The notes under the pieces: generated by a model
Told to the model about the DNA's origin: nothing
The model's input: only the letters and a program-made list of their open reading frames with translations
Database searches by the model: none
Shown: positions 55,158-55,360 of the stretch, in pieces
Layout of the letters: each line of letters begins with the position of its first letter
How positions within the stretch are numbered: the stretch's first letter is position 1
Program-made: the position numbers and the translations under genes
Assembly: GCA_964016885.1 (NCBI GenBank)
Contig: OZ024763.1
Coordinates: 5,022,001-5,086,000 of the forward strand
Source of the DNA: Eledone cirrhosa
Taxonomy: Eukaryota
DNA length: 64,000 nt
Reading direction: 5' to 3'

Positions 55158-55360
55158 TAGGAACCAGTAAGACCCCGACAGCTGAGCTCAAGCCGTTTCG
55201 ACGGCTAATTCTGGACTCTGAGTCCAGAATTAGCCGTCGAAACGGCTTGAGCTCAGCTGTCGGGGTCTTACTGGTTCCTATTACCCACTCTACTACCTCA
55301 AGTATTGAGTACTTTGGTGCGTTATGGTCCACCTGGTTCCTTACCACATTTCCTTCGTTA
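55158..55360 (+). mobile_element. Fold-back family A, full copy
   Basis: 61-bp perfect arms centred on T55219 plus 80-bp tail; TA flanks. Confidence 0.92.

Follow-up and report, generated by a model that had tools for sequence, protein, structure and literature searches.

Family A is a set of short palindromic repeats, each unit approximately 200 bp long, of which the element at 55158-55360 is a complete example. We favour, with modest confidence, the view that its copies are short end-pieces of a Penelope-like retrotransposon (PLE), rebuilt at every insertion from two cDNAs; that the family originated from PLEs, by whatever route, appears likely, such membership being suggested by structure alone. 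The PLE route is supported by the anatomy of seven copies, the pairing of arms by copy, the variety of centres and the fixed outer ends, and the two-cDNA route in particular by copies at 3.6k and 26.0k that combine a whole inverted arm with a shortened direct arm. All coordinates refer to the window, that is, the entire stretch of 64,000 nucleotides analysed, which is AT-rich and dense in microsatellites, with 15% of its length in (TA)4+ runs.

Anatomy of the element and its copies

The original prediction described a palindrome at this position, and the arms at 55158-55218 and 55220-55280 are indeed perfect reverse complements, with T55219 between them. From left to right, the element comprises (TA)n, a 61-nt inverted arm, a single T, a 61-nt direct arm, a 79-nt tail and (TA)n again. 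The left (TA)n run (55143..55159) is the likely target; the inverted, short arm (55158..55218, minus strand) is tail-less, and its outer end, CCTA, is fused to (TA)n. Beyond the 1-nt centre (55219), the direct arm (55220..55280, plus strand) is identical to the inverted arm and it alone is followed by the tail (55282..55360, plus strand), which contains at 55302-55315 a 14-nt motif in common with a second family, family B; the right (TA)n run, and then (GT)n, occupy 55361..55413. Both arms within 55158-55280 have the expected layout, GAAAC-GGC-TTGAGCTCA-GCT-GTC-GGGGTC, with GCC in place of GCT in other copies, and the window contains the 29-nt arm motif 10 times, whereas 100 shuffles contain none. 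The original prediction mentioned neither the tail, which lies beyond the palindrome, nor the clustered inner ends described below. In one subfamily, the end of the short arm at 55272-55280 (TGGTTCCTA) is a near-repeat of a motif that lies within the tail at 55335-55344 (TGGTTCCTTA); in other subfamilies the TGGTTCCTTA-type motif is kept in the tail only.

The window contains seven close copies of family A. Five are two-armed and tailed, one has an inverted arm fused to a tail, and one consists of a tail only. Besides the element at 55158-55360, the two-armed copies lie at 4084..4282 (minus), 5940..6158 (minus, with a mononucleotide spacer of ~14 nt), 19578..19778 (minus) and 25940..26124 (plus), the last joining a whole inverted arm to a direct arm that runs from GAAAC onward. 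At 3594..3729 (plus) a whole inverted arm is fused directly to the tail, and at 7116..7201 (plus) the tail is accompanied by only 6 nt of arm. A shortened copy inverted head to head is present in six of the seven, while one tail is found in all seven and two tails in none. TA runs flank most copies on both sides, being shortest at the right ends of the 3.6k and 7.1k copies, and this flanking (TA)n masks any target-site duplication. Four diverged relatives (17.8k, 40.7k, 42.7k and 52.4k) comprise a short arm with the last 23 nt of a tail at 40701..40795 (minus) and further diverged arms at approximately 17790-17915, 42696-42752 and 52403-52456.

Other repeats share the window. A tRNA-like, SINE-type repeat, two opposed copies of which flank the tail-only copy at 7116..7201, is present many times over, in places head to head and in places in tandem (7009-7390, 10960-11150, 42706-42900, 54690-54990 and 60100-61300). 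The commonest tRNA-like repeat of the window presumably resembles octopus SINEs, for which reason we regard the window as animal DNA, probably from an octopod. An open frame of 190 codons at 46422-46994 (plus) presumably resembles, in its second half, the C-terminus of an RTE-type LINE protein. Tandem arrays at 33216-33680, 47950-48480 and 52050-52330 have units of approximately 21, 21 and 88 nt respectively.

Ends, centres and the pairing of arms

Reads and contigs from four sequencing runs (X24, X1, X4 and X5) were matched to the direct arm and tail, over a stretch starting at 55220. Runs under 10 organism labels contain some of the element's words, and seven of these contain more than half of the words. 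Matches to arm and tail amount to 21,976 of 12,467,656 reads in X24 and 16,756 of 17,142,217 contigs in X1, with 39 and 1 in X4 and X5. Family A is abundant in organism A, where read and contig counts do not equate to copy numbers and the RAD library apparently cuts inside the arm. At 55228, 7,142 read ends pile up on an AATT, and this pile was set aside as the probable restriction cut of that library rather than a biological feature. No RNA run with the element was listed by the sequencing-run search.

The tail ends at the same position in all copies, and both outer ends are fixed in the reads, 3,412 reads of X24 passing into (TA)n behind 55281. Short arms had been expected to end at the same CCTA fused to (TA)n, and do so in five of six copies, the 6.1k copy extending 4 nt further. 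The centres vary, as had also been claimed, taking six different forms in six of six copies (1 to ~14 nt). Uniform size, fixed outer ends and clustered inner ends would equally be expected of a non-autonomous element that moves whole, be it a palindromic SINE or something MITE-like; inheritance or gene conversion would then keep the arms alike, and the tip of the hairpin would be unstable. Hairpins are prone to deletions at their centres, and variants shared at the level of subfamilies would follow from inheritance. We nonetheless regard movement of the whole unit as distinctly unlikely: three copies with tails 0-2 of 79 nt apart carry three different centres, a longer one-armed form occurs in the reads, and the inverted repeat is not terminal, since the tail lies outside it and the two ends differ. 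An ordinary MITE, from which the original prediction had set the family apart, does not fit for these last reasons.

Ten of 13 arms have their inner end at 55220-55222 (6 of 6 inverted and 4 of 7 direct), the remaining three direct arms starting at 55239, 55275 and 55284, and shortened arms and a longer form coexist with these clustered ends. Among the 13 joints listed from reads and contigs, six switch strand at 55221-55222 and four of these six reach the tail (55285, 55303, 55315 and 55318), each of the four joining a whole inverted arm to a short direct piece, although joints at such sequence likeness can arise from repeats and one of the entries represents a single read start. None of the joints listed crosses an intact centre, so that the variety of centres is drawn from the window alone; restriction cuts and the loss of hairpins could be the cause. 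Loose ends before 55221 are found in 859 reads, in 107 contigs of X1 and in one of X4, with an overall agreement of only 45-47%. The X1 consensus and the X4 contig agree at most of 30 upstream letters, ending TAATTT before AGTCC, and a minority longer, one-armed form with AT-rich upstream sequence exists. Its letters are drawn from subfamilies other than that with G at 55220, the reads of which were counted as overrunning the start of the stretch. In the window, the upstream motif of the longer form has one match where 1.01 are expected, that is, at the level of chance. Open frames across arm and tail were also considered by inspection and rejected, both being closed by a stop where the longer form joins.

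The claim that arms co-vary within each copy is borne out. Arms of the five two-armed copies differ by 0, 2, 3, 3 and 0 letters, or 3.1% on average (5 pairs), against some 11.5% between copies (11.4% for arms on the same side and 11.7% for those on opposite sides, 25 pairs each); the true pairing is the best of 120 permutations, and also the best of 6 within the closest subfamily. Grouping of arms by left or right side, named beforehand as the contrary outcome, is not seen among the window copies. The variants had been called copy-specific, a description that is not confirmed, for the letters look subfamily-level and only one shared change (55258) is private to one window copy. This position is a CpG site, and its common C is missing in ~18% of X24 reads (2,316/12,965), decay at other CpG positions being 4-11%; the tail letters at 55298 and 55299 of the 55158-55360 copy are retained in 23% and 18% of reads respectively. 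Because the same letters are frequent in X24 reads, the shared arm letters are probably subfamily alleles; covariation therefore shows a common source lineage, but cannot by itself separate copying at insertion from inheritance.

Copying of the second arm from the first had been put forward as the origin of this pairing. We retain one source for both arms at each insertion, but simple fold-back, in which the end of a single cDNA of the same PLE origin would self-prime or fold back, copying then giving the second arm, we judge unlikely. Self-priming has been proposed for Penelope, where palindromes at inverted junctions are interpreted in this way (in the accessible part of PMC3846280), and arms that are identical in two of the five two-armed copies and paired by copy would agree with it. 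Against this, several copies combine a whole inverted arm with a shortened direct arm, which disfavours fold-back from the arm that bears the tail: at 3.6k, at 26.0k and in the four tail-landing joints, the inverted arm holds letters that are absent from the direct arm. Nor does fold-back explain a copying stop exactly at the tail start. Later deletion could be the source of the whole inverted and shortened direct arms.

Hammerhead-like motifs in family A and parallel families

The direct arm carries, at 55239..55267 (plus), what resembles the 3' half of a hammerhead: GAAAC, a stem III-like helix, a GAGCTC loop, GTC and GGGGTC, with no core, stem I or stem II. The CUGANGA half was said to be missing and is so, with no match at up to one mismatch on either strand of the six units scanned, that is, the close copies other than the tail-only 7.1k copy. 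The letters (U)GA, thought to survive at the centre, are present there, but need not be a remnant of the core, since longer copies read TAATTT-AGTCC at this point. A longer parent with CUGANGA had been anticipated; the longer form in the reads has neither CUGANGA nor, in its 30 upstream letters, a stem I partner for GGGGUC, and by inspection stems I and II are absent from the arm and the displayed upstream letters. Judged by the core test, family A is no hammerhead ribozyme.

GAAA, stem III and NUH are present in the close copies and disrupted in the diverged relatives. Across 14 arms (13 distinct, the 17.8k left arm and the shortened 26.0k direct arm being left out), pairing in stem III reaches 83% and compensatory pairs are lacking. 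In an overlapping hairpin, GCYGT-YGAA-ACRGC, pairing reaches 92%, two sequences show one compensatory pair, and 30 of 500 shuffles score as high; at 55232..55247 (plus) this hairpin reads AGCCGT-CGAA-ACGGCT, the best-kept structure of the wider family, and it buries the GAAA. These tallies weakly favour an arm fold burying GAAA over stem III. An HDV-like fold at the inner end was dropped by eye, its candidate pairing being confined to one subfamily. No Rfam family matched at gathering thresholds, and at loose thresholds no hammerhead family matched family A or B; such a blank says little on variants this short, and the miRNA matches obtained reflect the hairpin only.

Reading family A as a hammerhead remnant thus finds neither a core nor covariation in stem III, and only AT-rich letters upstream. 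In particular, we consider it very improbable that the family is the remnant of a hammerhead retrozyme, with self-cleavage defining the RNA and a longer GACCCC-CUGANGA parent: in addition to the missing core and stem I partner, the rival hairpin, itself weak, is the better paired, and cleavage at GUC would cut in mid-arm, away from the inner end. In its favour, the palindromic loop fits the dimeric hammerheads of PLEs (available text of PMC4209133), and family B carries the complete motif with a comparable spacing. Shuffled sequence, moreover, seldom contains the half motif: 4.0%, 1.3% and 0.6% of 5,000 shuffles do so at 4, 5 and 6 bp, figures uncorrected for motif-hunting. Because of this rarity, and of the full hammerhead of family B in the same layout, a degenerate hammerhead origin is possible and decayed hammerhead ancestry plausible on these sequence grounds. 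The register is ambiguous, the global alignment of A to B setting the core of B on the arm-internal CCAGAA and not at the centre.

Family B (40949..41146, plus) is likewise a palindrome with a one-sided tail. By inspection, its direct arm at 41008-41056 contains a complete predicted type I hammerhead, comprising stem I (GCTTC/GAAGC), CTGAAGA, stem II (TTCA/TGAA), GAAA, stem III (ACAG/CTGT), an ACTAGT loop and GUA; the minimum-energy fold retains stem I, not stems II and III. A and B have the 14-nt tail motif in common, similarly spaced (a score reached by 1 of 500 shuffles), whereas their global alignment is not significant (52 of 500). Older relatives of family B lie at 10807-10925, with tails at 1762-1825, 8053-8120 and 11200-11250, and the spacing of its core resembles a Hydra-clade motif in the accessible part of the PMC8557442 supplement.

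The layout of palindrome and tail is common to families B, C and D in the window, and this recurrence, together with the full hammerhead and shared tail motif of B, also counts in favour of the PLE route. Family C (2259-2392, tail to ~2490) has 63-nt arms, a one-sided tail and TA runs, and its arms begin at a degenerate hammerhead core (CAGAAGA, stem II, GAAA and stem III). Longer head-to-head inverted repeats, with arms of ~145 nt and no hammerhead core seen, occur at 58514-58805, which has TA runs and a one-sided tail of ~66 nt, and at 50851-51149. Minimal hammerheads with a full core and a 4-bp stem II lie at 7430-7461 (minus) and ~57190-57220 (minus), ending a short frame PDEGLMPETS; upstream of the former, a C-rich stretch at 7600-7870 may be a decayed PLE end. 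Nothing in the available part of the PMC8557442 supplement matched any of five motifs taken from family B, family C and the 7.4k hammerhead.

Proposed route of insertion and known systems

Under the two-cDNA route, a PLE protein supplied in trans by a parent would bind the tail region of the RNA and nick both strands of a TA run. On one strand, reverse transcription would be primed internally at 55360, where the tail ends, and on the other at CCTA (55280), where the tail starts. The two cDNAs would extend to a preferred stop near A55221 and be linked in head-to-head orientation, with a small number of letters at the junction that are untemplated or slipped. Dual priming, a shared stop and head-to-head joining would together account for every feature of the anatomy, among them the uneven arms and the variety of centres. 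The arms would match since both come from one source lineage, and ribozyme activity would be unnecessary. Our favoured guess is that the stop is the 5' end of the RNA, transcription starting at TT-A-GTC, and that the extra G at 55220, seen in three arms from which the cap and start-site step is drawn, may be a copied cap. TT-A-GTC of the longer form is presumably close to the initiator consensus. Alternatively, reverse transcriptase may stall at the U-run, or the stop and extra G near 55221 could reflect a substitution within a subfamily or a splice acceptor; the inner-end TTTAG can be read as a 3' splice site.

An inverted 5'-truncated copy, a one-sided tail and a bias to (TA)n are marks of PLE insertion (accessible text of PMC8557442; also PMC3846280 and PMC8969392). 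A PLE protein that is predicted to dimerise cuts and extends both target strands in vitro with no need of a ribozyme, and two internal start sites on its RNA coincide with the tail ends (available part of PMC11167929); an untemplated 5' G from the cap is described for L1-driven insertions (available part of PMC3287187). Several results count against the PLE route, however. No parent encoding RT or GIY-YIG was found in the window or in the 30 upstream letters of the longer form, nor by eye any long coding frame in the window, and eight family A motifs found no homologue in the accessible Naiad, Hydra and Chlamys consensus sequences, whose line breaks may hide motifs. Octopus Naiad 3' ends, as far as available, have only GTCGAAAC and a G-run ~12 nt later in common with family A. 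Furthermore, the 79-nt tail exceeds the published 30-40 nt, and ordinary 5' truncation would leave inner ends much less uniform than those seen. Uneven arms could also be later hairpin deletions. Pattern scans for family A gave no match in metagenome, viral and prokaryote genome collections.

How the inverted copies and tails of PLEs are made is described as unsettled in the accessible text of PMC8557442 and PMC11167929. In an abundant young family whose arms and junction lie within 200 bp, dual priming, fold-back and whole-unit movement are separable by counting. Such repeats can be misfiled as MITEs, and in an octopod host these palindromes would be ready ADAR substrates. Octopus has an exceptionally high share of near-perfect dsRNA loci and was omitted from the repeat annotation (available part of PMC5625713). 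A bolder and doubtful extension is that family A could be a PLE-dependent 'palindromic SINE', a capped RNA of ~140 nt that has a start site of its own and of which a dimeric PLE protein makes two copies at each insertion, every event writing a new perfect 60-bp hairpin; the hammerhead core would have been lost in favour of the GAAA-burying hairpin, and family A, together with its parallel families, might account for a major part of the near-perfect dsRNA and of the A-to-I hyper-editing that octopus is reported to show.

We found no published account of family A, or of uniform mini-palindromes with clustered inner ends, in literature covering few subscription papers and not Repbase, which may list repeats of this kind. 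Already known are the general anatomy and hammerhead pairs on opposite strands, whereas inner-end clustering (10/13 within 3 nt) and a tail of twice the usual length were not found in print. MITEs and fold-back DNA elements are likewise short, abundant, hairpin-forming and set in TA context, but family A differs in its non-terminal inverted repeat, unequal ends and a centre that varies per copy. DIRS-type retrotransposons are defined by an internal region complementary to both ends (accessible text of PMC8969392), while the family A centre, of 1 to ~14 nt, has none. The minimal type I hammerheads of PLE pseudo-LTRs and non-LTR retrozymes have GAAAC, a palindromic loop III and GUC as in family A, which differs in having no CUGANGA, stem I or stem II and in being inverted rather than tandem (available parts of PMC4209133 and bioRxiv 10.64898/2026.07.22.740005); paired hammerhead motifs on opposite strands, 100-700 bp apart, are described for Schistosoma (PMC4209133, likewise).

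The closest likeness in anatomy is to truncated insertions of the EN+ PLEs Naiad and Hydra, which also have an inverted 5'-truncated copy head to head, a one-sided tail, a (TA)n target and abundant 3' ends (this and the following from the accessible parts of PMC8557442). Naiads have no canonical hammerhead, some retaining half a core, and octopus families exist. Family A differs from the Naiad/Hydra type in its tail (79 nt against a published 30-40 nt), inner ends within 3 nt, a unit of ~200 bp and the want of a homologous consensus match, and its nearly identical copies contrast with cephalopod Naiads, which are called long inactive. The Poseidon element PAc of Anolis, as described in the available part of PMC11167929, has an active hammerhead and an ORF over the region, where family A has neither. 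PAc also has two internal RT starts bounding the tail, an AT-rich target and extension of both strands, and its start sites lie ~110-150 nt past the hammerhead core, comparable with 60 and 140 nt in family A.
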